A stretch of 64,000 bases of DNA from Betaproteobacteria bacterium (GTDB lineage Bacteria > Pseudomonadota > Gammaproteobacteria > Burkholderiales > SG8-41): assembly GCA_025363435.1 (NCBI GenBank), contig JANYDY010000042.1:5323-69322 (forward strand), written 5' to 3'. The translations under genes and the position numbers were made by a program. Of the stretch, positions 37,400 to 61,867 are shown one piece after another (position 1 is the stretch's first letter; every line of letters starts with the position of its first letter). Below the pieces are notes generated by a model. It saw nothing but the letters and a program-made list of their open reading frames with translations. It searched no databases and had not been told where the DNA came from.

Positions 37400-38461
37400 C
37401 TAAGCCTTGAAGGCTCCGGCAACCTGCGTTTTGACCTCGGCAGGAACAGCATCGGTGAAATGCTGTTTCGCCGTACCGGCCTTGACCTCTTCGCACCATA
37501 ACTCGTGGTGTTCTTTTGCCCACATCTCGTCTACCACGCCAAGGCGCATCGCTTCATAGGCACCGTCAGCACCTACCGTGCCTATGTAGATATGGCCTAA
37601 AGACATTGCGATAAACAGCACGGCGCTGATCACATGCACCACATTGGCAGACTGCATGACAAACCGCGTCTGCTCGAAATTCGCGAAGTCCATCACCAGC
37701 CCTGATGCGCCGCTGATCAATCCGAGCAGAATCACGCCAAACCAGAACCAGGCTTTTTCGCCGGCATTAAAGCGTCCGGACGGCACATGTTCGCCGCTCA
37801 AGAGACCGCCGGCCTTGGTCAGCCATTGGAAGTCAATCATGCGCCACAGGTTGTCCCTGACGAAGGTTACAAACATCACGATCGTGCAAAACACAAACAG
37901 CGGGCCGACGAAGTTATGAAGATTTTTCCCGAAGAAAGCCAGCCAGGAAAAAAAATCATGCCCCAGCAGCGGCAACAACACGTATTTACCAAACAACATG
38001 ATCACGCCGCTGACGGCAAGGATCAAAAAACTGATTGCGGTGCTCCAATGCACCAGTCGTTCCCAATCACTGAAACGCTCGATCAATCTGCCGCTGGGTT
38101 TGCCGTGCAATCGTAATGGCCCCTTCCACCTGAAGAAACCATAAATCAGCAGCGGTATCGCAATTAACAGCAATCCACCATACAACGTCAGCGGCCCGTT
38201 ACGAAGCCGCCGCCATGTTTCGCCCGCAGACTGCATCAGGATATTGGTTTCTACACCGCGCACCTGCGTGGTCTGATAGGGATTTTCGCCTTTGCGCACT
38301 TCGCGCCAAACAGGCGCGTTGTTACCGGGCTGCGTATTCTGGCGCTGCGCCTGTTCCTGCGCGCTGCTGTCGGCGCTCCATGCGCTGGCAGGCGCAACCA
38401 CCAGGCCGCAGATCAGCGTGAATAACAGCCACACCCGCGCACAGACGAATGTTTTGATCAT
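37400..38461 (-). CDS. formate dehydrogenase gamma (cytochrome b) subunit with N-terminal exported extension
   Basis: ATG 38461 is preceded by GAGGG. Signal-like N-terminus MIKTFVCARVWLLFTLICGLVVAPASA, an approximately 90-aa soluble stretch, then the FdnI/FdoI-like 4-TM dihaem b core (HWSTAISFL..., HNFVGP..., GEKAWFW..., HVISAVLFI...GHIY). Confidence 0.85.
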   Translation of the reverse strand: MIKTFVCARVWLLFTLICGLVVAPASAWSADSSAQEQAQRQNTQPGNNAPVWREVRKGENPYQTTQVRGVETNILMQSAGETWRRLRNGPLTLYGGLLLIAIPLLIYGFFRWKGPLRLHGKPSGRLIERFSDWERLVHWSTAISFLILAVSGVIMLFGKYVLLPLLGHDFFSWLAFFGKNLHNFVGPLFVFCTIVMFVTFVRDNLWRMIDFQWLTKAGGLLSGEHVPSGRFNAGEKAWFWFGVILLGLISGASGLVMDFANFEQTRFVMQSANVVHVISAVLFIAMSLGHIYIGTVGADGAYEAMRLGVVDEMWAKEHHELWCEEVKAGTAKQHFTDAVPAEVKTQVAGAFKA

Positions 38462-38471
38462 GATGGCCCTC

Positions 38472-38696
38472 TTATTTGGCACTCGCTACCGCACGCGATT
38501 GCTCGTCCTGCCCCTGGTTGCGTGCCCTGATGGCTTTTTCCCATTCGACCTTGCTGGCTTTGAACTGGTCGTTGTCCCATGGTTTGGCGTCGAACTTGCC
38601 TTGGTACTGCCCCTGTTTATAGACTAGGGGCTTGTCGCTGCAACCGGCCATCAACAAAGCCAGCGCGCCAACCGCGAACAATCTGCGCATCATCAT
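38472..38696 (-). CDS. hypothetical small lipoprotein (74 aa) between FDH beta and gamma genes
   Basis: MMMRRLFAVGALALLMAGC lipobox-type signal. Start overlaps the fdh-beta stop (ATGA). The stop lies 8 nt before the gamma start codon. Confidence 0.55.
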   Translation of the reverse strand: MMMRRLFAVGALALLMAGCSDKPLVYKQGQYQGKFDAKPWDNDQFKASKVEWEKAIRARNQGQDEQSRAVASAK

Positions 38697-39337
38697 GATT
38701 TACTCCCGGCTTTTGCTGCCGCTTTGCCGTCAGCGCCCTCGGGCTTGGCATCGGGTTTGCCGTAGGCCGTGGCCCAACCCAGCACCTCCGAACCTTTGCC
38801 GCGGGCAAGCGCGCGGTTGCGAAATACATCAGAAATCACATCGCCGTCGCCACCGAGCAAAGCCTTGGTCGAGCACATTTCGGCGCACGCCGGCAGTTTG
38901 CCTTCGGCCAGACGATTGCGACCGTATTTCTTGTATTCCTCTTCCGAATTGTCGACCTCGGGACCGCCGGCACAAAAAGTGCATTTATCCATCTTGCCGC
39001 GCACGCCGAACAAACCCTGCTGCGGAAATTGTGGCGCGCCGAACGGGCAGGCATAGGAACAATAGCCGCAGCCTATGCACATATCCTTGTCGTGCAGCAC
39101 CACGCCTTCGGTCGTTGTATAGATGCAGTCAACCGGGCATACCGCCACGCAAGGCGCATCCGAACAATGCATGCAGGCGACCGAAATCGATTTCTCGCCC
39201 GGCACGCCGTCGTTCAGCGTGACGACGCGGCGACGGTTCACTCCCCACGGAATTTCATGCTCGCTTTTGCATGCGGTTACGCAGCCATTGCACTCGATGC
39301 AACGTTCGGCATCCAACAGAAATTTCATTCTTGCCAT
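38693..39337 (-). CDS. formate dehydrogenase beta (4Fe-4S) subunit
   Basis: Four ferredoxin-type Cys clusters (CIECNGCVTAC, CMHCSDAPC, CIGCGYCSYACP, CTFC...C). Confidence 0.9.
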   Translation of the reverse strand: MARMKFLLDAERCIECNGCVTACKSEHEIPWGVNRRRVVTLNDGVPGEKSISVACMHCSDAPCVAVCPVDCIYTTTEGVVLHDKDMCIGCGYCSYACPFGAPQFPQQGLFGVRGKMDKCTFCAGGPEVDNSEEEYKKYGRNRLAEGKLPACAEMCSTKALLGGDGDVISDVFRNRALARGKGSEVLGWATAYGKPDAKPEGADGKAAAKAGSKS

Positions 39338-39362
39338 GACGACTCCTCGGCTCTCGTTATGT

Positions 39363-42281
39363 TTATGCCGCGTTGCTGATCTGGCACAGCGTGGTTTTGT
39401 TTTCCTGCATCATGGTGACGATGTCGTAACCATACGTGGTCGCAGTATTGACCGATTCGCCGCGCACTATGGGAGCTGAACCTTCGGGGTACTTGTCGAG
39501 CAGATCGCGGCCTTCGAACCAGCCGGCAAAATGGAACGGCAGAAACACGGTTCCCGGCGCCACGCGTTCGGTAATCTGCGTTTTAACCTTGAGACGCGCC
39601 TTGGTCGGCGTTTCAACCCATATGTACTGGTCGTTCCGCAAACCGCGGTCGTTGGCGTCTTTCGGATTAATTTCCGCAAACATTTCCTGCTGCAGTTCGG
39701 CAAGCCATGGGTTGGAACGCGTCTCGTCGCCACCGCCTTCATATTCGACCAGACGACCGCTGGTCATGATCAGCGGATACTGCTTGACCGCGTTTTTATT
39801 GGCCTGCTGCACCGTCTTGAACAGGACCGGCACGCGCCAGCGGCTCTTCTGGTCATCGTGCGTCGGGTACTTGTCGATCAGATCCGGGCGCGGACTGAAC
39901 AGCGGTTCACGGTGCAACGGCACCGCATCCGGAAAGTTCCACACCACGGCGCGCGCCTTGGCGTTGCCGAAAGGATGGCAGCCGTGTTTCATCACCACTC
40001 GTTGAATGCCGCCCGACAGATCGGTTTTCCAGTTCTTGCCTTCCGCGGCTTTTTTCTCGGCGTCGGTCAACTCATCCCACCAGCCTAGTTTTTTCACCAG
40101 CACGTGATCAAATTCCGGATAGCCGGTGGTCAGATCGGCGCCGACAGAATGCGAACCGTCTTCCGCCAGCAGGTTGACGCCATCCTTCTCGACGCCGAAA
40201 TTGGCGCGGAAGTTGCCGCCGCCGTCCATCACATGCCGCGTCGTGTCATATAGATTCGGCGAACCCGGGTGCTTGATTTCCGCCGTGCCGTAACACGGCC
40301 ACGGCAGCCCGAAATAATCGCCGTCGAGCACATAACCGGTTTTGGCGTCCTTGCCGCCTTTCGCCCGCAAGGTTTTCACATCGAACACGTGCATGTTGCG
40401 CATATGCGCCTGCAGCCGCTCCGGCGACTGACCGGTGTAACCGATAGTCCAGGCGCCGCGGTTGATTTCGCGCAACGTATCCTCGATGTCCGGTTCGTCC
40501 ATGCCACCCTTGCCTTTGACCAGCTTGATCTTGGCGACAAACTCTTTGGCGAAACCAAATTTTTCGGCGAGCTGATACATGATCATATGATCGGTGCGCG
40601 ACTCAAACATCGGTTCGATCACTTTTTCGCGCCATTGGATGGAACGATTGGACGCGGTCACCGAGCCTGTACATTCCAGCTGCGTCGCCGCCGGCAACAG
40701 GTAAACACCGTCCTGCCGTACTGATGCCGCCAGTGCTGCGGTTGCGGATGGATAAGGGTCGACGACCACCAGCAGTTCAAGTTTCTTCATCGCTTCGACC
40801 ATCTCTTTGCCGCGGGTCTGGCTGTTCGGCGCATGCCCCCAGAACACCACCGCGCGCAGATTCGAATCCTGATCGATGAGCTCATTTTTTTCGAGCACTG
40901 CGTCAATCCAGCGCGAAACGGCAAGGCCTGGTTTTTCCATCATCGCCTGCGATGCGAATTGACTCTTCACCCATTCGTAGTCGACGCCCCACACTGCGCA
41001 CCAGTGTTTCCACGAGCCGGCCGCAATGCCGTAATAACCGGGCAGCGAATCGGGATTCGGGCCGACGTCGGTTGCGCCTTGCACGTTATCGTGGCCGCGG
41101 TAAATATTGGTGCCACCACCCGCCACGCCGACATTACCAAGCGCGAGTTGAAGGATACAGCTGGCGCGCACGACAGCATTACCGTTCGTATGTTGTGTCT
41201 GCCCCATCGCCCACACGATCGTGCTGGGACGGTTCTTCGCCATCGTCTCGGCAACATCGCGGACTTCAGCTTCCTTCATGCCGGTAACTTCTTCGACCTT
41301 CTCCGGCGTCCATTTCGCGGCCTCATCCCTGATCTTGTCCATGCCATAAACACGGGCCTTGATGTAATCCTTGTCTTCCCAGCCGTTTTTGAAAATGTGA
41401 TGCAGCATGCCCATCAGGAATGCTACGTCGGTGCCGGAACGAATGCGGTAGTACTTGTCCGCCTTCGCCGCGGTACGGGTGAAACGCGGGTCGACGCAAA
41501 TGACTTTGGCGCCTTTTTCCTTGGCATGCAGCGTATGCAGCATTGACACAGGATGCGCTTCTGCAGCGTTGCTGCCGAAAAACAATATGCACTTCGAGTT
41601 CTGCTCGTCGTTGTAGGAGTTGGTCATCGCACCATAGCCCCAGGTGTTCGCCACCCCGGCCACTGTCGTCGAGTGGCAGATACGCGCCTGATGATCCATG
41701 TTGTTGGTGCCGAAAAACGACACGAACTTGCGAAACAGGAAAGCCTGCTCGTTGTTGTGTTTGCTCGATCCGATCCAGAATGTCGAATCAGGGCCGTTTG
41801 CCTTCTTGATTGCCAGCATTTTTTCGCTGACTTCCTTCAATGCTTCGTCCCAGCTGATCTTCTGCCATTTGCCGCCGACCAGCTTCATCGGATATTTGAG
41901 ACGGTGTTCGCCATGGCCGTGTTCGCGGATCGCCGCGCCCTTGGCGCAGTGCGCACCGAGATTAATCGGCGAATCGAATACCGGTTCCTGGCGGATCCAG
42001 ACGCCGTTTTTTACCACCGCGTCGATCGCGCAGCCAACCGAGCAGTGTGTGCATACGGTGCGTTTGGTTTCGGTCTTGCCGTCGCCTTTTGCATCGGCGG
42101 CGCGTGCTTTGCCTATCATCGAGAACGGCAACTGGCTCACCGCAGCGCCGGCGCCGACACCGAGCCCGGAGCGCTTAAGGAAAGTGCGCCGGTCGATGGT
42201 GCGTCCCAGATGGGCCGAGACGTTGCGGCTCAAACGGCTGCTGTTTGCGCCTGCGCTTCCTGTTTTTCGGGTCAGTGACAT
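39363..42281 (-). CDS. formate dehydrogenase alpha subunit, periplasmic molybdopterin enzyme, Cys-type
   Basis: Tat signal RTIDRRTFLKRSG, N-terminal FeS motif CTHCSVGCAIDA...C and 972 aa. The active-site region HQARICHSTTV has Cys where E. coli enzymes have Sec. Confidence 0.93.
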   Translation of the reverse strand: MSLTRKTGSAGANSSRLSRNVSAHLGRTIDRRTFLKRSGLGVGAGAAVSQLPFSMIGKARAADAKGDGKTETKRTVCTHCSVGCAIDAVVKNGVWIRQEPVFDSPINLGAHCAKGAAIREHGHGEHRLKYPMKLVGGKWQKISWDEALKEVSEKMLAIKKANGPDSTFWIGSSKHNNEQAFLFRKFVSFFGTNNMDHQARICHSTTVAGVANTWGYGAMTNSYNDEQNSKCILFFGSNAAEAHPVSMLHTLHAKEKGAKVICVDPRFTRTAAKADKYYRIRSGTDVAFLMGMLHHIFKNGWEDKDYIKARVYGMDKIRDEAAKWTPEKVEEVTGMKEAEVRDVAETMAKNRPSTIVWAMGQTQHTNGNAVVRASCILQLALGNVGVAGGGTNIYRGHDNVQGATDVGPNPDSLPGYYGIAAGSWKHWCAVWGVDYEWVKSQFASQAMMEKPGLAVSRWIDAVLEKNELIDQDSNLRAVVFWGHAPNSQTRGKEMVEAMKKLELLVVVDPYPSATAALAASVRQDGVYLLPAATQLECTGSVTASNRSIQWREKVIEPMFESRTDHMIMYQLAEKFGFAKEFVAKIKLVKGKGGMDEPDIEDTLREINRGAWTIGYTGQSPERLQAHMRNMHVFDVKTLRAKGGKDAKTGYVLDGDYFGLPWPCYGTAEIKHPGSPNLYDTTRHVMDGGGNFRANFGVEKDGVNLLAEDGSHSVGADLTTGYPEFDHVLVKKLGWWDELTDAEKKAAEGKNWKTDLSGGIQRVVMKHGCHPFGNAKARAVVWNFPDAVPLHREPLFSPRPDLIDKYPTHDDQKSRWRVPVLFKTVQQANKNAVKQYPLIMTSGRLVEYEGGGDETRSNPWLAELQQEMFAEINPKDANDRGLRNDQYIWVETPTKARLKVKTQITERVAPGTVFLPFHFAGWFEGRDLLDKYPEGSAPIVRGESVNTATTYGYDIVTMMQENKTTLCQISNAA

Positions 42282-42296
42282 GGCGGCGGCTCCTGC

Positions 42297-42494
42297 TTAA
42301 ATTTTGGCGGTACGGTAATAGTTGCGTACATGCTCAGTGAGTTGATAACCCTTGCCCTGCGTCGCGCCGGCGCTAACCGCTGCCGGTTCGGCGTTCCCGC
42401 CGGCCTGCTTGAGCACAACCGCTGCCGCCGCTGCACCGCCGACGCCTAGGGTGGCAAGAAATTTTCTGCGACGGGAAAGCAGTTTCGTCGTCAT
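42297..42494 (-). CDS. small Tat-signal protein of the formate-dehydrogenase-region family
   Basis: 65 aa. Twin-arginine SRRRKFLATLG and a C-terminal YQLTEHVRNYY motif, as described for the 'formate dehydrogenase region TAT target' family (TIGR02811, from memory). Confidence 0.7.
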   Translation of the reverse strand: MTTKLLSRRRKFLATLGVGGAAAAAVVLKQAGGNAEPAAVSAGATQGKGYQLTEHVRNYYRTAKI

Positions 42495-42512
42495 ATTCGG
42501 GCGCTCCTCGAT

Positions 42513-43151
42513 CTAGGCAATTTCGAAAGATTCATACTCAATGGCGAAAAACGCGCGCGCGAATTGAGCAACGCGTTTGTAAAAACCGGTTTGGCTGGCG
42601 CCGTCGACGGCATCGCAGAGTTGCGTCTGCCAGCTATTGATGTGGCGCAGAAAGAAATCGCGCTGCGCGGCAAGCGCAGCAGGCGGCGTGTCATGATCGC
42701 CGTGAATCAACAAGCGCATCACATCGCACAAAGCAGAAATATGATCCTCCGTTTCATGACTGCTGCCGCTTCGCGCCAGACCCATCTGTGTGAGTTCTTC
42801 GCGCAATTGCGCGAGCGGCTTTTCGTGCAGAAATCCTGTCAGGTAAAACGAGCCATACAACATAACCGCCTGGCGCCCGGTGCCGATAAATGCAGCGTCG
42901 TACTCGTCCTTGACTGCTGCAACATCGGTACTAACCGCAGCATGCTGCAACGCGCGCCATGCCCTGCAAAAATCTGAATCTGATACATCATTGCACAGCG
43001 TTTCATTGGCTGCAATAGCCTGCAACAACTCTTTTGAAGGCGGTTGATAAAACAAATTGCCGAGTAAAGCGTAAACGTCAGCCCTTGCGCCGTCTTCCGG
43101 CGACAATTGTTCGCTCCCGGGTATTTCATTGTGCGGCGCATCAATTGTCAT
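42513..43151 (-). CDS. TorD/DmsD-family redox-enzyme maturation chaperone
   Basis: About 212 aa with ...DVYALLGNLFYQPPSKELL..., a TorD-like helical protein directly upstream of the Tat substrates. ATG 43151 (TTG 43154 alternative). Confidence 0.7.
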   Translation of the reverse strand: MTIDAPHNEIPGSEQLSPEDGARADVYALLGNLFYQPPSKELLQAIAANETLCNDVSDSDFCRAWRALQHAAVSTDVAAVKDEYDAAFIGTGRQAVMLYGSFYLTGFLHEKPLAQLREELTQMGLARSGSSHETEDHISALCDVMRLLIHGDHDTPPAALAAQRDFFLRHINSWQTQLCDAVDGASQTGFYKRVAQFARAFFAIEYESFEIA

Positions 43152-45232
43152 CAATGGTCCAATATCGACCCGTGGCTGGCATTCCGCATCAGGTCAACGA
43201 CTCTGCAGTCGGAACACATTTTCAGGCGCTCAAGCGCGCCCGCCTCGGCAAACATCGAATGCGCGGTCAGCTTTCCCAGCATGTTGTCGATCATCTGTTT
43301 GGTCGCAAACGGCTTGCCGCATTTGATGCAGGCGAATATTTCCGCTTCATGCAGCACGACTTGCGACTGGGCCTGTTTGTTCAGCAACAGGCGCGGCGTG
43401 AGGCTGATCGCGTTCTCCGGGCAGGTTTTTTCGCACAAGCCGCATTGCACGCAATTGGATTCAATAAATCTGAGCTGCGGTCGCTCCTGAGAGTCGAGCA
43501 ACGCGCCCTCGGGGCAGGCGCCGACACAGGACATGCATAGCGTACAGGTCTGCTTGTTGACCTCGACCTTGCCGTACGGCGCCCCCGCCGCCAGCGCGAT
43601 CTCATCCTGCGGCTGCGGCGCATGCTTGAGCAAATGCGCGAGGGCGAAATTAAGCGTCGTGCGCTTTTCGTTTGACCAGTTGAACGTCGCCACGGCCGGC
43701 GCCTTACGTACGGGACGCGCAGCCCAAACCGCCGCTTCGAGCGCAGCAAGGTCCGGCGCTTCGATCAATTGTAAATGGCCCTTGCCATAACCGAGCGCAG
43801 TCAAAATCTCCTGGGCGTAACCCATCTGGCGCCTCAACGAGTCCAGATACTCCGGCGCCTCGCCACCAGCACTGACAACCGCAACGCCCGCAGCGCCGTA
43901 GGCGATTGCGCCGAGCATGCTATCGATGCCCAGCGAAGCAATATGAAAAACTTCATGCGGAATAACGTTTGCCGGCAGCCCGCGGCCGCGCCGCCCCAGC
44001 TTTGCCAGCAGCTCGCGGCCGTTGCTCGCGTTATGCAACAACAAAGACGCGTCTTTGCCGCCGGCCTGATGGAAGGTCGAAAGCAGCTTCCTGACGCGCA
44101 ATCCCGCATCGGCCACCCGCGGATAGGCATAACTCATGGCGCCCGAAGGGCAAACGCTGGCGCAAGCACCGCAGCCCATGCACAAATGTGGCTCGACCTT
44201 GACGTGCTCGCCATCGGCGCTGATTGCGGCCGTCGAACAAATATCAATGCACTTGTTGCAACCGGTAATTTCTGCGCGGCTGTGGGCGCAGATTTTTTCC
44301 CGGTAGGCAAAATACTTCGGTTTTTCGAATTCACCCGTCATCTGCGTCAGCATGCGCGCGGCCTCGGCCTGCGCCAGCGGGTCGCGGCCGGGTGCAAAAT
44401 AACCCTGCGGCGGCTGATGCATTCTGAACAGCGGCGTCGCACCGAGATCCAGCACCAGGTCATAACGTTCATTGCGGAGCGCCTCGCCGCGCTCAAAATC
44501 GATTGCGCGCACCTCGCCGCAAGCCTTGACGCACGACCGGTGGGCCTTGCATTTATCGAGATCGACCTGGTAGCTGTAATCAATCGCGTGCTCAGGACAG
44601 GCCGTGATGCAGGCATTGCAGCGCGTGCAGGTATCGAGATCGATCGGATTCACCTGTTCCCAGGCGGCTTCGAACGCGCCCAGATAACCGCTCAACGATT
44701 GCGGCTTGCCGCTGGACACTGCATAGCGGCGCTCCGCCGGCAATTCGCAAGCAGTGCTGTCGGTAATCAGCACATGCACACCGAATTGGTCGGCAAGCTG
44801 CTCAGCCCATGCAATCGCCGCGCCGCCCGGCCCGGTAATCAACAGCTCGCCGCCTGATTTGTAGGTAACGACCGCTACCGGCTCCAGATCCGGCAGTTGC
44901 GCCGCGGCAATCAATGCGGCGATTTTGGGCATCGCCTGTGGCGCTTGCGCGGACCAGCCGGCGGTTTCGCGGATATTGACGAAGCGCAGGTCGCCCGCGG
45001 CTTTGAACTCCTCATGCAGTTCGCGGAATAACGGCGCTTCCTGCGTGCAGGCAACGAGCAGATCGTCGCCGCTTTTGGCCGCCGCTTCGAACGCAGCGAC
45101 ATGGCGCCGGCACAACTCGCTGTTGATGTCGGGCGCCGCTTCAAGACCGAGCGCCGCGCCCACTGCCTTGGCGTCGAGCGGCATGGTTTTATTGCAATTA
45201 CACAGCAGCAACTTGTGACGTGGCAATGTCAT
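43151..45232 (-). CDS. large polyferredoxin (multiple 4Fe-4S dicluster domains)
   Basis: 693 aa with at least six CxxCxxCxxxCP-type motifs (CTRCNACITACP, CNKCIDICS, CMGCGACASVCP, CTLCMSCVGACP, CVQCGLCEKTCP...) and a C-terminal CxxC...CxxC. Confidence 0.85.
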   Translation of the reverse strand: MTLPRHKLLLCNCNKTMPLDAKAVGAALGLEAAPDINSELCRRHVAAFEAAAKSGDDLLVACTQEAPLFRELHEEFKAAGDLRFVNIRETAGWSAQAPQAMPKIAALIAAAQLPDLEPVAVVTYKSGGELLITGPGGAAIAWAEQLADQFGVHVLITDSTACELPAERRYAVSSGKPQSLSGYLGAFEAAWEQVNPIDLDTCTRCNACITACPEHAIDYSYQVDLDKCKAHRSCVKACGEVRAIDFERGEALRNERYDLVLDLGATPLFRMHQPPQGYFAPGRDPLAQAEAARMLTQMTGEFEKPKYFAYREKICAHSRAEITGCNKCIDICSTAAISADGEHVKVEPHLCMGCGACASVCPSGAMSYAYPRVADAGLRVRKLLSTFHQAGGKDASLLLHNASNGRELLAKLGRRGRGLPANVIPHEVFHIASLGIDSMLGAIAYGAAGVAVVSAGGEAPEYLDSLRRQMGYAQEILTALGYGKGHLQLIEAPDLAALEAAVWAARPVRKAPAVATFNWSNEKRTTLNFALAHLLKHAPQPQDEIALAAGAPYGKVEVNKQTCTLCMSCVGACPEGALLDSQERPQLRFIESNCVQCGLCEKTCPENAISLTPRLLLNKQAQSQVVLHEAEIFACIKCGKPFATKQMIDNMLGKLTAHSMFAEAGALERLKMCSDCRVVDLMRNASHGSILDH

Positions 45233-45276
45233 TGGGTACGCCTGTAGCTGAAACCGCGGTTAATCGATCGCGCAAC

Positions 45277-45867
45277 TTACTTGTCGCGGCCCTGCCCGGA
45301 CTTCTGTTCAGTTGCCGTTTGATGAGGTACAGCAGGCTGCTCGACGTGCTCTGCTTGCTCTGCGTGCGCTGTTTGCGCAACCACTGGCGGACTTTGCGGA
45401 TTTGCCGCCAACTCTGCCTGAGCAGGCAGCGACGCCGCCGCATTCTCAGCAGCTTCAGCCGCGCGGTTCGCGTCAGTCTCCTCCTGCGTTTCCGTCGCCC
45501 AGGCGATTATTTTCTGCGCGTGTTTGAGTTGCGCCAGCATTTCGGGCGGTAAGGGGTCTGAGATAGAATAGTCATCGATATAAGTATCGAGCCCGTCCAT
45601 GACGTTGAAATGCGGATCGCTGAATAGTTTTTTCAGCGCCATGCGCCGCAGATTTACATCCGCCTTGGGATGAAAAAAGCCGCGAAAATCCGATTCAATA
45701 GTAAGTTCCTCAATTGACGGCAAAACCAGCGGCGGTGCGTCCGGATCGATGGCCGGCAGTTGCTGGTCGTTGGCATCGGCGGCGGGTTGCTCCCGCAACT
45801 CTTTTTTGACCCGCGACCAGCGCGACAGAAACGCCTCGCTGCGGAATTTATCCGGCTCGTCACTCAT
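45277..45867 (-). CDS. DUF3306-like protein
   Basis: ATG 45867 (MSDEPDKFRSEAFLSRWSRVK...). The conserved N-terminal half is followed by a low-complexity Ala/Gln/Glu tail. The upstream 79 codons of the ORF track are rejected. Confidence 0.65.
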   Translation of the reverse strand: MSDEPDKFRSEAFLSRWSRVKKELREQPAADANDQQLPAIDPDAPPLVLPSIEELTIESDFRGFFHPKADVNLRRMALKKLFSDPHFNVMDGLDTYIDDYSISDPLPPEMLAQLKHAQKIIAWATETQEETDANRAAEAAENAAASLPAQAELAANPQSPPVVAQTAHAEQAEHVEQPAVPHQTATEQKSGQGRDK

Positions 45868-45871
45868 GGCT

Positions 45872-46375
45872 CTATTCAGTCCTGCCCATGCGGCCTTTGT
45901 CCCTGCTGCTGGCGTACTTCTTCGGTTTTCTCGGTTCGGGTTTGTAATGCAAGTCCACAAACTCCCCCACCCACGGCAGTAATTCCACCGGCAACGGCAC
46001 GCCGTCAACGCTTTCACCGCTATCGGCCCAGCGCGTGCCTTCGTTATAGCTGACCGTAACAAACTCCGGTCGCACCCGTTCGTCGTGCACGCGCCAAAGC
46101 ACAAATACCTTGGGCTCGGGTGATGTCAGATTGAGGTAGTAACCCTCGGCCTCTTCGCGCGTCAACTTGAGCCCCAACCCCGGAAACAGCACTTGCATCT
46201 GCTGCTCATCGCGCACCATAACGCTTTCACCGGAGCCCGCTGGAAAAATATCGCGTATGACCCCCCTTGCCTGCCAGCGAAACGGCTGCCACCGGTTATT
46301 CACCTGCATGACGCGCTCCATGATGACTGCAATCGGGTAAAATGCCGCCGTGATATCGTCGGTTCTCGTTGTCAT
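45872..46375 (-). CDS. DUF3305-like protein
   Basis: ATG 46375 (MTTRTDDITAAFYPIAVIMER...). Gene order DUF3305-DUF3306-polyferredoxin matches my recollection of conserved FDH neighbourhoods. Confidence 0.65.
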   Translation of the reverse strand: MTTRTDDITAAFYPIAVIMERVMQVNNRWQPFRWQARGVIRDIFPAGSGESVMVRDEQQMQVLFPGLGLKLTREEAEGYYLNLTSPEPKVFVLWRVHDERVRPEFVTVSYNEGTRWADSGESVDGVPLPVELLPWVGEFVDLHYKPEPRKPKKYASSRDKGRMGRTE

Positions 46376-46536
46376 GGGATGATTCTGCCCGAGCAAAACT
46401 GATAGTTCAATCGGAATCACAAATCAAATACCTGATTTATAAGTAATGTCTTCCTTGCCGTGAGGCAAGCACCTTTATCATAATTGCCATCCGCTGCGGC
46501 TGTGCAGCGCAGCAATGGCACGAGGCGAAGATTTTT

Positions 46537-47577
46537 TTGAACGACCCGGCACACAAGTCTGTAGCAAGCGGCCCCCTGGTCAGCGACCAGCTCGGCAGGC
46601 CCTTGCGCGACCTGCGCATCTCGGTGACCGACCGCTGCAATTTTCGCTGCGTTTACTGCATGCCGAAGGAAGTGTTCGGCAAGGACTACCAGTTCCTCGA
46701 ACATCGCGAACTGCTGTCGTTCGAGGAAATTACACGGCTGGCGCGCGTCTTTGCACAGCACGGCATCGAAAAAATCCGCCTGACCGGCGGCGAGCCGCTG
46801 ATCCGCCGCAAGATCGAAAACCTGATCGAAGTGCTGGCGGCCATACCCGGCCTCGATCTCACGCTGACTACCAACGGCTCGCTGCTGGCGAAAAAAGCGC
46901 AGGCATTGAAAGCGGCGGGCCTCAAACGCATCACCGTCAGCCTTGATTCGCTCGACGACGCAGTATTCATGAAAATGAATGATGTCGATTTCCCGGTTGC
47001 GCGCGTGCTCGAAGGCATAGACGCCGCCGCTGCGGCCGGTCTCGCGCCGGTCAAGATCAACATGGTGGTCAAACGCGGCGTCAACGACCAGTCGATTACC
47101 GCAATGGCGCGGCATTTTCGCGGCAGCGGACATATCCTGCGCTTTATTGAATACATGGATGTCGGCCACACCAACGGCTGGCGTATGGATGACGTAGTTA
47201 CCGCGCGCGAAATCATCGACATGATCTCCGCCGAAGCGCCGCTCACACCTGCCGACCCGCACTACCGCGGCGAAGTCGCGCAGCGCTGGCGCTATCTCGA
47301 CGGCAGCGGCGAAATCGGCGTGATTGCTTCGGTAACGCAGGCCTTCTGCCGCGATTGCACGCGCGCGCGCCTCTCAACCGAAGGCAAGCTGTTTACCTGC
47401 CTGTTTGCCACTGAAGGCCACGATTTCAAATCGCTGCTGCGTAGCGGCGCTGATGACGCAGCGATATCGCAACAGATCACGCGTGTCTGGCGCGCGCGCA
47501 ACGACCGCTATTCAGAAATCCGCACCGCGGCGACGGTCAAGCTCAATAAAGTCGAAATGTCATATATCGGCGGATGA
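46537..47577 (+). CDS. moaA: GTP 3',8-cyclase MoaA (radical SAM)
   Basis: [18 protein letters not shown] radical-SAM motif and C-terminal [21 protein letters not shown] second-cluster motif. TTG start at 46537 with GAGG upstream. Confidence 0.9.
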
Positions 47578-47645
47578 TTGCAGCAGGATTCAGCAAACCT
47601 GATACCGCTCACTACAAGCATCGTCACTAAATCCTGAATCCTGAA

Positions 47646-48452
47646 ATGCCCTACCGCCCCCGACTCTCCAACGCCCAATGCGCGCCGACCTTTACGGTCG
47701 AAGCGCGCGACGAGCATGGCGTCGCCGTGCCGACGTCAATTGCGACGGAACGCCCGCTGACAATCTACGTTGATAAACGCGAGATCGTTACGCTGATGAC
47801 ATTGGGCGCCGCACCCGAAGCATTGGCGATCGGTTATCTGCGCAATCAGCGCCTCGTCGATAACATTGAGGAAATCGTCGCGGTGCAGGTCGATTGGGAA
47901 GTCGGCGCGGTGGCGGTCACCACACGCAATGGCCTCGCCGACCTCGACGGCCGCATGCAGAAACGCACCGTGACCACCGGCTGCGGTCAGGGCACGGTGT
48001 TCGGCGCACTGATGGATGACATCGAAAACATCCACCTGCGCGACGACGTTAGGCTCAGCGAAGCCACCTATTATCAGTTGATCGACAACGTGCGTCGTTA
48101 CGACACAATCTATAAAGCCGCCGGCGCCGTACACGGCTGTGCACTCGCGCATGGTTCCGAAATTCTGATGTTCGTCGAAGATGTCGGCCGCCATAACGCG
48201 GTCGATGCGATCGCCGGCCGCATGTGGCTGGACGCGATCGACGGCAGCGACAAGGTGTTCTACACCACCGGCCGCCTGACCTCGGAAATGGTCATCAAGT
48301 GCGCGCAGATGCAGATTCCGATTCTGGTTTCGCGCTCCGGCCTCACGCAAATGGGCTACGACATCGCGACAAAAACCGGCATTACCATGATAGGCCGCGC
48401 CACCGGCAAACACTATTTACTGTTCACCGGCGCGCATCGCTTCGTGAAATAA
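47646..48452 (+). CDS. fdhD: formate dehydrogenase accessory sulfurtransferase FdhD
   Basis: 268 aa with TTGCGQG..., EDVGRHNAVD and SGRLTSEMVIK motifs. Confidence 0.9.
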   Translation: MPYRPRLSNAQCAPTFTVEARDEHGVAVPTSIATERPLTIYVDKREIVTLMTLGAAPEALAIGYLRNQRLVDNIEEIVAVQVDWEVGAVAVTTRNGLADLDGRMQKRTVTTGCGQGTVFGALMDDIENIHLRDDVRLSEATYYQLIDNVRRYDTIYKAAGAVHGCALAHGSEILMFVEDVGRHNAVDAIAGRMWLDAIDGSDKVFYTTGRLTSEMVIKCAQMQIPILVSRSGLTQMGYDIATKTGITMIGRATGKHYLLFTGAHRFVK

Positions 48453-58582: not shown

Positions 58583-59716
58583 TTAAGGCTTCTCTTTCGG
58601 CCGACTCATCAACCCGCCCACCCCCATCATCACGCCGTTGATGATGAACACCGCCGTCAATCCCGTAAACGACGCCACCACGCCGAACAACGCCGGCCCC
58701 GCTACCCGCATCGTATTGTTAACCGTGAGACGTAAACCCAGCGTTTCGCCGGTGCGGCCTTCAGCGCATTTGGCAAACATCAGCATGGTGGTGAGTGGTT
58801 GACCGCAGCCCATGCCGAGCCCGAATATAAAAGACACCAGCGAAAGCAATACCACGTTGTTGGACGCCGGTATCAACACGAAGCCGAGTGCGCCGATAAA
58901 AAACGAATAGGTCAGCAGACGCTGTTCGGTAAAACGCGCGACTAGCCCTGCCATGCCGAAGCGCACGCAAAAGGCTGCCGAGGCGAACACCGCCAGCACC
59001 GAACCGATGGCGCTGGCCGACATGCCGGCGTTGTGACCGTAGATCGGCATATAGAACTGAAACAGATCGGTGCCGAGCTGCATGATGCCGCTGGTGATCA
59101 GCATGCTGCGCATTTCGCGGTCAGACAGCGTTTCCATGATGTGCAGCCTGGGCGCGGTTGAGCACTGCCCTCGCGGCAGACTGCGCCCCTTGGTGAACAT
59201 CAGTATCAACGCAAATATCGACAACGAGGCGATGAACAGGCAGGCCATGGCGTGACTGGTGTGATCGACGGCGAGCCCGCCGAACAAAGGGCCGCAGAAA
59301 TTGGTGGCGGCGCCGACCAGACTGAAATTGGAAAAATTACGCACGCGCTGTGCGGGCGTACTCAAGCGCCCGACCAGAGTTTGCAGATTGACGTGATAGA
59401 GCGACAACGCCAGCCCGGACATTGCAGCGGCTATATACAGCGCCGCCACGTGATGCCAGAAGTACGGCAGCATCAAGCCGAGCCCGCTGACAACGGCGCT
59501 GGCGATCAGCGGTTTGCGCGGGCCGACGCGGTCGGACATCGCTCCCATCGGCCAAGACAGCAACAAGGGAAAAATAAAAAACATGGCGGCGAGCAGACCG
59601 ACCGCCGAAGCATCCGCGCCCAGTTGCAGCGCGTAGAGCGACAACACGACCCGCGATGCGGTCATCGCGGTAAAACTTAAAAAACCGACGGCGAATGTCA
59701 GATGCAGCGGATTCAA
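58583..59716 (-). CDS. MFS transporter
   Basis: 377-aa 12-TM-type hydrophobic protein with the MFS loop motif GAMSDRVGPRKP. Confidence 0.85.
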   Translation of the reverse strand: MNPLHLTFAVGFLSFTAMTASRVVLSLYALQLGADASAVGLLAAMFFIFPLLLSWPMGAMSDRVGPRKPLIASAVVSGLGLMLPYFWHHVAALYIAAAMSGLALSLYHVNLQTLVGRLSTPAQRVRNFSNFSLVGAATNFCGPLFGGLAVDHTSHAMACLFIASLSIFALILMFTKGRSLPRGQCSTAPRLHIMETLSDREMRSMLITSGIMQLGTDLFQFYMPIYGHNAGMSASAIGSVLAVFASAAFCVRFGMAGLVARFTEQRLLTYSFFIGALGFVLIPASNNVVLLSLVSFIFGLGMGCGQPLTTMLMFAKCAEGRTGETLGLRLTVNNTMRVAGPALFGVVASFTGLTAVFIINGVMMGVGGLMSRPKEKP

Positions 59717-59734
59717 CGCGTCAACGCCTCCGTA

Positions 59735-60784
59735 TCACAACAGTACGTTGATCAGAGGTTCGCCTGCCGACAGCGTGCCGATTTCGCAGGCAGCCGAAAA
59801 TCCATCGGCCTTGAATATTTCAAGCACCTTGGGCGCAGTGGCACGATCGCAGGCCACCATCAAACCGCCGCTGGTCTGCGGATCGCACAGCAACCTGCGC
59901 TGCCATTCGGGGAAACCCTCAGGTAATCTGATATGCGGACTGATGCCGGTCCAGTTGCGCTCGGAGGCGCCGGTCACATAACCGGCCTCTGCCAGATGCA
60001 AGGCCGCCGACAACACCGGTATATCGGCATAGCGCAAGTCGGCGCGCAATTTCGAACCGCGGCAGATTTCGTGCAGATGGCCGAGCACGCCGAAGCCGGT
60101 GACGTCGGTCATCGCATGTACGCCGGGCAAAGCCGAAAGTGCGATGCCTGGTGTGTTGAGTTTTGTCGTCGTCTCGATCATCTGCTGATAAGCCTTGTCG
60201 CGCAATTCGCCCTTTTTCAGCGCGGCGCTCATTACGCCGACGCCTATGCCCTTGCCGAGGATCAATACGTCGCCCGCCTGCGCACGGTCGTTGCGCTTGA
60301 TGCGCGCCGGTTGCACAAGGCCGATCGCAACGAGGCCGTAGAGCGGCTCCGGGTTGTCGATCGAATGCCCGCCGGCAATCGGAATACCCGCCGCTTTGCA
60401 CACTGCTTCGCCGCCGGCGAGAATTTGCGCCGCCGCTTCAACCGGCAACTTGCCCAACGGCATGCCGAGCAAAGCCAGCGCGAAAATAGGCGTGCCGCCC
60501 ATCGCGTAGACATCCGAGATCGCATTGGTCGCGGCGATGCGTCCGAAATCGAACGGATCGTCGACGATCGGCAAAAAGAAATCCGTCGTTGCAACGATCG
60601 CCTGTTCATCATTAATGCGATAAACAGCCGCGTCGTCGCTCGACTCGGTGCCGACGAGCAGATTCGGATACGCTTTCGCCAGCGGCGATTTCGACAGCAA
60701 TTCCCCCAGCAACGCTGGCGGTAATTTGCAGCCTCATCCGCCGCCGTGTGAAAATGCGGTCAGTTTGATTTTTTGTTGGTCCAT
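59735..60784 (-). CDS. selD: selenide, water dikinase SelD with in-frame UGA (putative selenocysteine 17)
   Basis: ORF track starts at internal TTG 60712. Extending upstream in the same frame gives ATG 60784: MDQQKIKLTAFSHGGG-TGA(60736-60734)-GCKLPPALLGELL... E. coli SelD has SHGAGCGCK with catalytic Cys17 at this column. The rest is SelD throughout (DDAAVY, TTDFF.PIVDDPFDFGRIAATNAISDVYAMGG, MTDVTGFG). Confidence 0.85.
60703..60721 (-). other. candidate SECIS-like hairpin downstream of the selD UGA
   Basis: mRNA CCGCCAGC-GUU-GCUGGGGG starts 12 nt after UGA. Stem CCAGC/GCUGG plus CC/GG across a G.G mismatch, with G and U in the apical loop. Confidence 0.4.
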
Positions 60785-60817
60785 GGGTTGAGCTGGTTGA
60801 TTCATTGAGGTTTTTCA

Positions 60818-61867
60818 TTGCGCAACAACGAGCCGGTAAACGTAGCACAACTCGCCGAGTTTGACGAGGTTATTGACGTTCGTTCCGAGGCGGAATTCGC
60901 CGAAGACCACATTCCCGGTGCGATTAATTGCCCGGTGCTCGACAACGAAGAACGCATACGCGTCGGCACCATGTATAAGCAGGTCTCGCCGTTCGAAGCA
61001 AAAAAAGTCGGCGCCGCACTGGTCAGCCGCAACATTGCGCGCCATCTCGAAGAAAATCTGTCGCAGCGTCCGCGCAACTGGAAGCCGCTGATCTATTGCT
61101 GGCGCGGCGGCACGCGCAGCGGCGCGCTCTCCAGCGTGCTGCAACAGATCGGCTGGCGCGCCAACCGGCTTGAAGGCGGCTACAAAACCTATCGCCGCGC
61201 GGTGATCGACGATCTGGCCGTGCTGCCGCAGCGTTTCAACTGGCGCGTGATTTGCGGTCTCACCGGCTCGGGCAAAAGCCGCCTGCTGCGCGCGCTGGCT
61301 AAAGCCGGTGCACAGGTGCTCGATCTCGAAGCGCTCGCCGCCCATCGCGGCTCGGTGCTCGGCAATCTGCCCGACGAACCGCAACCGTCACAAAAAATGT
61401 TTGAAAGTCTGGTTTGGCATGCGCTGCATCACCTCGACGCCGCCCGACCGGTGTTCGTCGAATCCGAAAGCAAAAAGATCGGCAATCTGCGCACGCCCGA
61501 AGCGTTGATAGAGACGATGTGGGCGAGCGACTGCATACGGCTCGAAGCAGCGACACTTTTGCGCGTGCCCATGCTGATCCAGGAATACGATCACTTCATA
61601 CGTGATCCGGCGGCACTTGGCGCGCAGCTCGACTGCCTGGTGACTCTGCACGGCCACGAACGCATCAACACATGGAAAGCCATGTCGGTTGCGGGCGACG
61701 ACAACACGCTGGTGCGCAAATTATTGGAACTGCACTACGACCCCGCCTACACGCGCTCCATCCTCGACCACTACCCGCGCCTCATGCAGGGTTTGCAGCT
61801 TACGGTTGAAGCGGATAGCGACAGCACATTCGAAGCGCTTGCAGCGCGCTGCATCGCCGGCGTCTGA
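60818..61867 (+). CDS. selU: tRNA 2-selenouridine synthase (SelU/MnmH/YbbB)
   Basis: N-terminal rhodanese domain (VIDVRSEAEFAEDHIPGAINCP...YCWRGGTRS) and a P-loop domain (CGLTGSGKS). TTG start at 60818 with GAGG 7 nt upstream. Confidence 0.85.
   Translation: MRNNEPVNVAQLAEFDEVIDVRSEAEFAEDHIPGAINCPVLDNEERIRVGTMYKQVSPFEAKKVGAALVSRNIARHLEENLSQRPRNWKPLIYCWRGGTRSGALSSVLQQIGWRANRLEGGYKTYRRAVIDDLAVLPQRFNWRVICGLTGSGKSRLLRALAKAGAQVLDLEALAAHRGSVLGNLPDEPQPSQKMFESLVWHALHHLDAARPVFVESESKKIGNLRTPEALIETMWASDCIRLEAATLLRVPMLIQEYDHFIRDPAALGAQLDCLVTLHGHERINTWKAMSVAGDDNTLVRKLLELHYDPAYTRSILDHYPRLMQGLQLTVEADSDSTFEALAARCIAGV

Follow-up and report, generated by a model that had tools for sequence, protein, structure and literature searches.

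Among the selenoprotein families of bacteria, selenophosphate synthetase (SelD) ranks second in distribution, behind FdhA. Its selenocysteine (Sec) forms are found in Sec-decoding organisms, and Sec-decoding bacteria without a Sec-containing FdhA all have Sec-SelD (PMC1794560). Sec occurs in ~19% of prokaryotic SelD genes, always at the column of the catalytic Cys17 of Escherichia coli SelD, and a Cys-to-Sec conversion in this enzyme is documented for the Pasteurellales (PMC4561486). The first-pass annotation of the locus described here had rightly named this column as a Sec position in some bacteria. SelA and/or ybbB is present in 93% of the genomes with SelD (PMC4561486). SelD as the sole selenoprotein has already been described for other lineages (PMC1794560), and the dependence of the enzyme on its own product has also been discussed earlier (PMC1794560, PMC4561486).

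The window, which is the entire 64-kb stretch of DNA analyzed, contains a gene at 59735..60805 that is identified by its alignments as selD, encoding a predicted selenophosphate synthetase (selenide, water dikinase). Written with C in place of U, the product of 349 aa that starts at ATG 60784 matches the NCBIfam SelD equivalog NF002098 with 512 bits (cut-off of 299), with the alignment starting at residue 2, and TIGR00476 with 424 bits (cut-off of 125). The phmmer alignment with E. coli SelD (PDB 3u0o) has an E value of 4e-94 and is collinear over residues 1 to 310. It sets "ltafshgggCgck" opposite "LTQYSHGAGCGCK", so that the in-frame TGA falls exactly in the Cys17 column. The Gly-rich loop with the catalytic Cys/Sec and Lys (C17 and K20 in E. 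coli) is present, with SHGGG-U-GCK lying on SHGAGCGCK of 3u0o, and the Asp motifs DDAAVY, TTDFF, SDxYAMGG, and MTDVTGFG of the AIRS/AIRS_C fold are kept in the same alignment. Close SelD homologues carry the PF00586 and PF02769 domains. The UGA at 60736..60734 very probably encodes selenocysteine.

Read on the minus strand from ATG 60784..60782, direct translation gives MDQQKIKLTAFSHGGG, the TGA, and then GCKLPPALLGELLSKS onward. The first-pass annotation had described a TGA in the catalytic column with a SelD-like open frame on both sides and an N terminus hidden by the ORF track, all of which is borne out: the mechanical ORF list gives selD only as 59735..60712. Its choice of ATG 60784 as the start stands only in part. 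This codon is in frame, but the frame stays open 5' of it as far as the in-frame stop at 60817..60815 and contains a second ATG at 60805..60803, reading MNQPAQPMDQQK onward. Because the SelD N termini of the relatives L001, L003, and L006 read MN.P, ATG 60805 is a plausible true start, equally or more likely than ATG 60784; if it is used, Sec would be residue 24 and not residue 17. No clear Shine-Dalgarno sequence precedes either of the two ATG codons. As the stop of selD at 59737..59735 is also a TGA, a single selD mRNA would contain one recoded and one terminating UGA. The coordinates of the locus are collected in Table 1. A gene for a major facilitator superfamily (MFS) transporter begins at TTG 59716, 18 nt past the selD stop and in the same frame, and the pairing of selD with this transporter is kept in relatives.

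Table 1. Features of the selD-selU region, in window coordinates
Feature	Position	Strand	Basis
selD, full coding sequence including the putatively recoded UGA	59735..60805	-	NF002098 match, E. coli SelD alignment, MN.P starts of relatives
selD start candidates	ATG 60805 or ATG 60784	-	
selD N-terminal coding segment 5' of the UGA, with the KLTAFSHGGG loop; absent from the ORF call	60737..60805	-	
In-frame UGA, predicted to be read as selenocysteine; E. coli Cys17 column in SHGGG-U-GCK	60734..60736	-	Alignment and conservation
SECIS-like stem-loop directly 3' of the UGA	60693..60733	-	Folding and conservation
Core hairpin CCAGC-GUU-GCUGG	60706..60718	-	
Apical loop GUU	60711..60713	-	
selD terminating stop, TGA	59737..59735	-	
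selU/mnmH, predicted tRNA 2-selenouridine synthase, divergent neighbor	60818..61867	+	NF008752, 507 bits, cut-off of 266

The TGA is a clade-wide feature. It recurs with near-identical flanks in two Logan runs (L085 and L086; 97% protein identity) as well as in three ENA contigs and the NCBI metagenome-assembled genome (MAG) GCA_943330565.2 (L081 to L084), which show 87% identity and are fully syntenic. The comparison of this column among orthologues, as proposed in the first-pass annotation, shows TGA in the closest relatives and TGC or TGT in more distant ones: in a set of 80 GTDB species representatives, TGA is carried by the four nearest (66 to 76% identity) and by two others, and the remaining 74 have a Cys codon. 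The TGA-bearing loci of these sets are L001, L002, L003, L006, L023, L041, and L081 to L086. Of the 120 protein clusters nearest to the window SelD, ~115 have lengths of 316 to 325 aa and are truncated at the point of the TGA, and a metagenome scan for CAYGGNGGNGGNTGAGGNTGYAAR adds ~105 further genuine Sec-type selD genes. In a rough neighbor-joining tree calculated with the first 40 residues excluded, the window SelD lies inside one coherent Sec-type clade of ~60 sequences, which adjoins betaproteobacterial sequences of the Cys type, e.g., those of Novimethylophilus and Sulfuricella. Elsewhere in this genome, and at the end of selD itself, TGA serves as a normal stop. A side observation concerns the metagenome contig Ga0124853_1402914 (L133), where a Sec-type selD lacks one G in the GGGGG of the 3' arm of the hairpin; the gene is out of frame there, and the contig is either misassembled at this point or carries a true pseudogene.

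Termination at the TGA, as in a pseudogene or a truncated gene, would leave at most a SelD starting from TTG 60712, devoid of the Gly-rich loop, Cys/Sec17, and Lys20. This reading accounts for the ORF call at 59735..60712 and for the lack of detected Sec machinery within the 64-kb window, but it does not fit the retention of the TGA in >100 independent contigs over ~60 to 97% protein identity. It is also contradicted by at least 10 codons 5' of the TGA that are under purifying selection in frame. In the 105 Sec-type genes, the variation in codons -10 to -5, a stretch not covered by the search pattern, is almost confined to third positions; for Leu -9, for example, the entropies of the first, second, and third codon positions are 0.45, 0.00, and 1.31, respectively; codons -10 to -5 of the 74 Cys-type genes likewise vary at third positions. 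Since the variation 5' of the UGA is dominated by third positions, this segment is translated in the selD frame, which bears out the earlier argument for recoding over a dead N terminus. In mutagenesis of E. coli SelD, losing Cys17 or Lys20 is reported to abolish activity, and a truncated SelD is therefore not expected to persist beside an intact selU. Truncation is accordingly very unlikely.

The coding sequence directly 3' of the UGA forms a G+C-rich, SECIS-like hairpin at the canonical distance, in the region for which the first-pass annotation had proposed a SECIS prediction. With the U of the UGA numbered 1, G24/U25 are bases of the loop, which begins 20 nt after the UGA, and the 5-bp core stem is part of an extended stem from positions 4 to 44. 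The corresponding loop bases of the E. coli fdhF SECIS are G23/U24. The 48-nt segment after the codon has a minimum free energy of -19.5 kcal/mol and a z score of -2.9 against mononucleotide shuffles; for a 71-nt segment with dinucleotide shuffles, the z score is only -1.39. Dereplicated sets of similar G+C content differ in their mean fold z scores over these 48 nt, with -1.43 for Sec-type and -0.01 for Cys-type genes (Mann-Whitney P = 7e-13, a value that overstates independence because the sequences are related). Hairpins that follow bSECISearch-like rules (apical loop 16 to 37 nt after the UGA, stem of ≥4 bp, stem-loop inside the coding sequence, and G within the first two positions of the loop) occur in 87 of the 95 genes of the Sec type but in only 16 of the 73 of the Cys type, and the window hairpin is among them. 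The real TGA stop of selD has no such hairpin. No Rfam match was found in the whole window at the gathering threshold or in 60600..60830 at an E value of ≤10, but this result is uninformative because, to our knowledge, the SECIS of bacterial selD is not among the families modeled in Rfam.

The hairpins of the subfamilies are built from entirely different stem sequences (GCACC-GUC-GGUGC, GGUCC-GGC-GGACC, CCCAA-GGUC-UUGGG, and CCCCGC-CGUGUU-GCGGGG), and their stems lie at nearly equal distances from the UGA, with register shifts of 0 to 4 nt. The family of the window hairpin, comprising 57 distinct sequences whose proteins show the motif P-A-[LV]-L, by which they were picked, has the helix paired in 96% of cells, compared to 11 to 58% with the partners slid. 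This family is nearly invariant, with double changes at one pair and weak column-wise covariation, and the RNAalifold consensus contains only 4 pairs, which are invariant or GU and include none with double changes. Within the family, support for the helix consists of conservation rather than compensatory change. The constraint is also visible at the codon level. Where the window and L001 (76% amino acid identity) share an amino acid, codons are identical at 14 of 15 positions after the UGA but at 126 of 229 elsewhere in the gene, and third-position entropies at codons +7/+8 are 0.32/0.49 in Sec-type genes versus 1.33/1.02 in Cys-type genes. The RNA hairpin appears to dictate the protein sequence just past the catalytic loop. 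Across L001 to L208, codons +4 to +8 (60706..60727 in the window) lie in a stretch reading K-L-[PT]-P-A-L-L in Sec-type proteins versus K-I-A-P-G-V-L in Cys-type proteins.

Searches with ARAGORN and with tblastn, using E. coli SelA and SelB, detect no tRNA-Sec, SelA, or SelB within the 64-kb window, which contains no tRNA gene of any kind. The 10-kb flanks of the Sec-type relatives likewise yield no selA, selB, or tRNA-Sec, except for the distant L135. Across 200+ loci, these searches find selA-selB-tRNA-Sec only beside Cys-type selD and at this one distant Sec-type locus; eight loci with detected machinery serve as controls (L005, L017, L026, L028, L032, L044, L045, and L135). The Novimethylophilus kurashikiensis locus (L005, 5365..11032) is a compact selenium island with selA, selB, tRNA-Sec, selU, and a Cys-type selD, and selA/selB also stand beside Cys-type selD in L017, L026, L028, L032, L044, L045, L048, and L079. 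A protein search with Novimethylophilus SelB gave four hits that were traced (P0222, P0161, P0229, and P0231), none of them from MAG GCA_943330565.2.

The UGA might alternatively be read without selenocysteine, by near-cognate Cys or Trp insertion or by noncanonical recoding, with the hairpin only slowing the ribosome. Such a reading is consistent with selA, selB, and selC being unobserved in the lineage, both in the window and in the flanks of relatives, and with the four traced SelB-encoding contigs having no link to the MAG. However, these searches cover only the window and the flanks of relatives, the distance of the hairpin and its G/U loop are typical of a SelB-dependent SECIS, and Sec-type SelD in the literature always co-occurs with the Sec trait (PMC1794560, PMC4561486). 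Reading by another amino acid is therefore highly improbable. A betaproteobacterial clade devoid of the canonical selA, selB, and selC, in which the selD UGA and its hairpin are recoded by some other route, has a slightly lower probability still. A sequencing or assembly error of TGC or TGT, for which it may be said that TGA is one base away from a Cys codon, has a negligible probability and is refuted by the occurrence of the same TGA in independent assemblies, namely, two from Logan, three ENA contigs, one NCBI MAG, and six GTDB genomes.

Sec insertion at the selD UGA would proceed as follows. The ribosome would arrive at the UGA in the selD mRNA, where the SECIS stem-loop in the next ~40 nt would be bound by SelB with GTP and Sec-tRNA(Sec), supplied by selA, selB, and selC genes presumably located elsewhere in the genome. 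Selenocysteine would be put in where E. coli SelD has its catalytic Cys17, and translation would then run on to the hairpin-less TGA stop. The full-length enzyme is predicted to convert selenide and ATP to selenophosphate. At least the adjacent tRNA 2-selenouridine synthase would draw on this product, as would SelA in the formation of Sec-tRNA(Sec) and hence the synthesis of SelD itself.

The predicted 2-selenouridine synthase gene lies head to head with selD. SelU/MnmH is intact, with the motifs CWRGGTRSG (containing the rhodanese Cys) and GLTGSGKS (P-loop); its gene starts at TTG 60818, with GAGG at 60807..60810. With SelD and SelU/MnmH, the selenouridine trait pair is present in the window, as judged from sequence. 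Nine of 12 Sec-type relatives share this head-to-head order, compared to 21 of 74 Cys-type relatives. The in-frame stop upstream of selD abuts the start of selU, which leaves almost no spacer (60784..60820), and each promoter and 5' untranslated region must therefore lie inside the coding region of the other gene. A sigma-70 promoter scan of 59500..61400 gave no sites.

It is possible, although doubtful, that SelD is the only selenoprotein of the clade and that the whole Sec apparatus is kept only for the enzyme feeding SelU. This version is in keeping with the alpha subunit of a formate dehydrogenase encoded on the minus strand of the window (39363..42281), which has Cys at the Sec column of FdnG/FdhF (ARICHSTTVAG); as this enzyme is of the Cys type, it does not add a further selenoprotein that would speak for Sec decoding. 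The formate dehydrogenase operon (~37400..48452) encodes an alpha subunit with a Tat signal, a 693-aa poly-ferredoxin, a TorD-like chaperone, a beta subunit, a cytochrome b, and FdhD, and no selA or selB was found beside it. A scan of the window for genes with an in-frame TGA returned only consecutive same-frame genes, e.g., 10697/11237 and 24779/24320. At its codon-usage score threshold of 0.15, the UGA of selD itself was not flagged, and the scan is therefore no evidence against other selenoproteins. Two ORFs (195 and 811 aa) directly 5' of fdhE-selA-selB make up the alpha subunit of formate dehydrogenase in L211 (2931..6002) and L213 and presumably mark another Sec codon broken by the gene caller.

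For annotation, the locus means that gene callers shorten selD, here and in >100 relatives from public protein collections, to 324 to 325 aa without the catalytic loop, and the corrected product would have ~349 to 356 aa with Sec in the active site. For the lineage, it means that these uncultured Betaproteobacteria are probable users of both the selenocysteine and the tRNA selenouridine traits. Conceptually, nothing is new, as Sec-SelD, SECIS elements within coding sequences, and the dependence of SelD on itself have long been described. A census from 2006 found only one selenoprotein family in the Betaproteobacteria, with 10 sequences. The Sec-SelD described here comes from an uncultured betaproteobacterial clade, unlike the known bacterial examples from Haemophilus influenzae and other Pasteurellales, Deltaproteobacteria, and Clostridia. 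The single family of that census is assumed by us to be FdhA.

The known bacterial Sec-SelD proteins have the UGA in the same column, within a loop xHGxG-U-GxK. Like the window gene, they carry the SECIS in the coding sequence just 3' of the UGA and are often paired with selU/ybbB. The window locus differs in that selU is divergent instead of forming an operon with selD and in that the hairpin CCAGC-GUU-GCUGG is specific to its clade. E. coli SelD (3u0o) shares with the window protein both the SHGxGCGCK catalytic loop and the Asp-rich motifs for ATP and metal but, unlike the window selD, its gene encodes residue 17 by TGC (Cys) and lacks a SECIS. The SECIS of E. coli fdhF resembles the window hairpin as a stem-loop right after the UGA with a G and a U in the loop ~20 nt downstream. 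In contrast to fdhF, the window loop is a 3-nt GUU, no bulged U matches U17 of fdhF, and the lower stem has a G-G mismatch, where sister sequences have a bulged A, G, or C. Another bacterial SelD of the Sec type, and one of known structure, is that of Aquifex aeolicus (PDB 2zod/2yye), which is reported to have a natural Sec13 and to have been crystallized as a Cys mutant. Its match to the window protein has an E value of 6e-46, but it is far more distant and has a different sequence, SSGC-AAK, in the N-terminal loop. The window selD is a further Sec-SelD of a well-known type, contributed by an uncultured betaproteobacterial clade.
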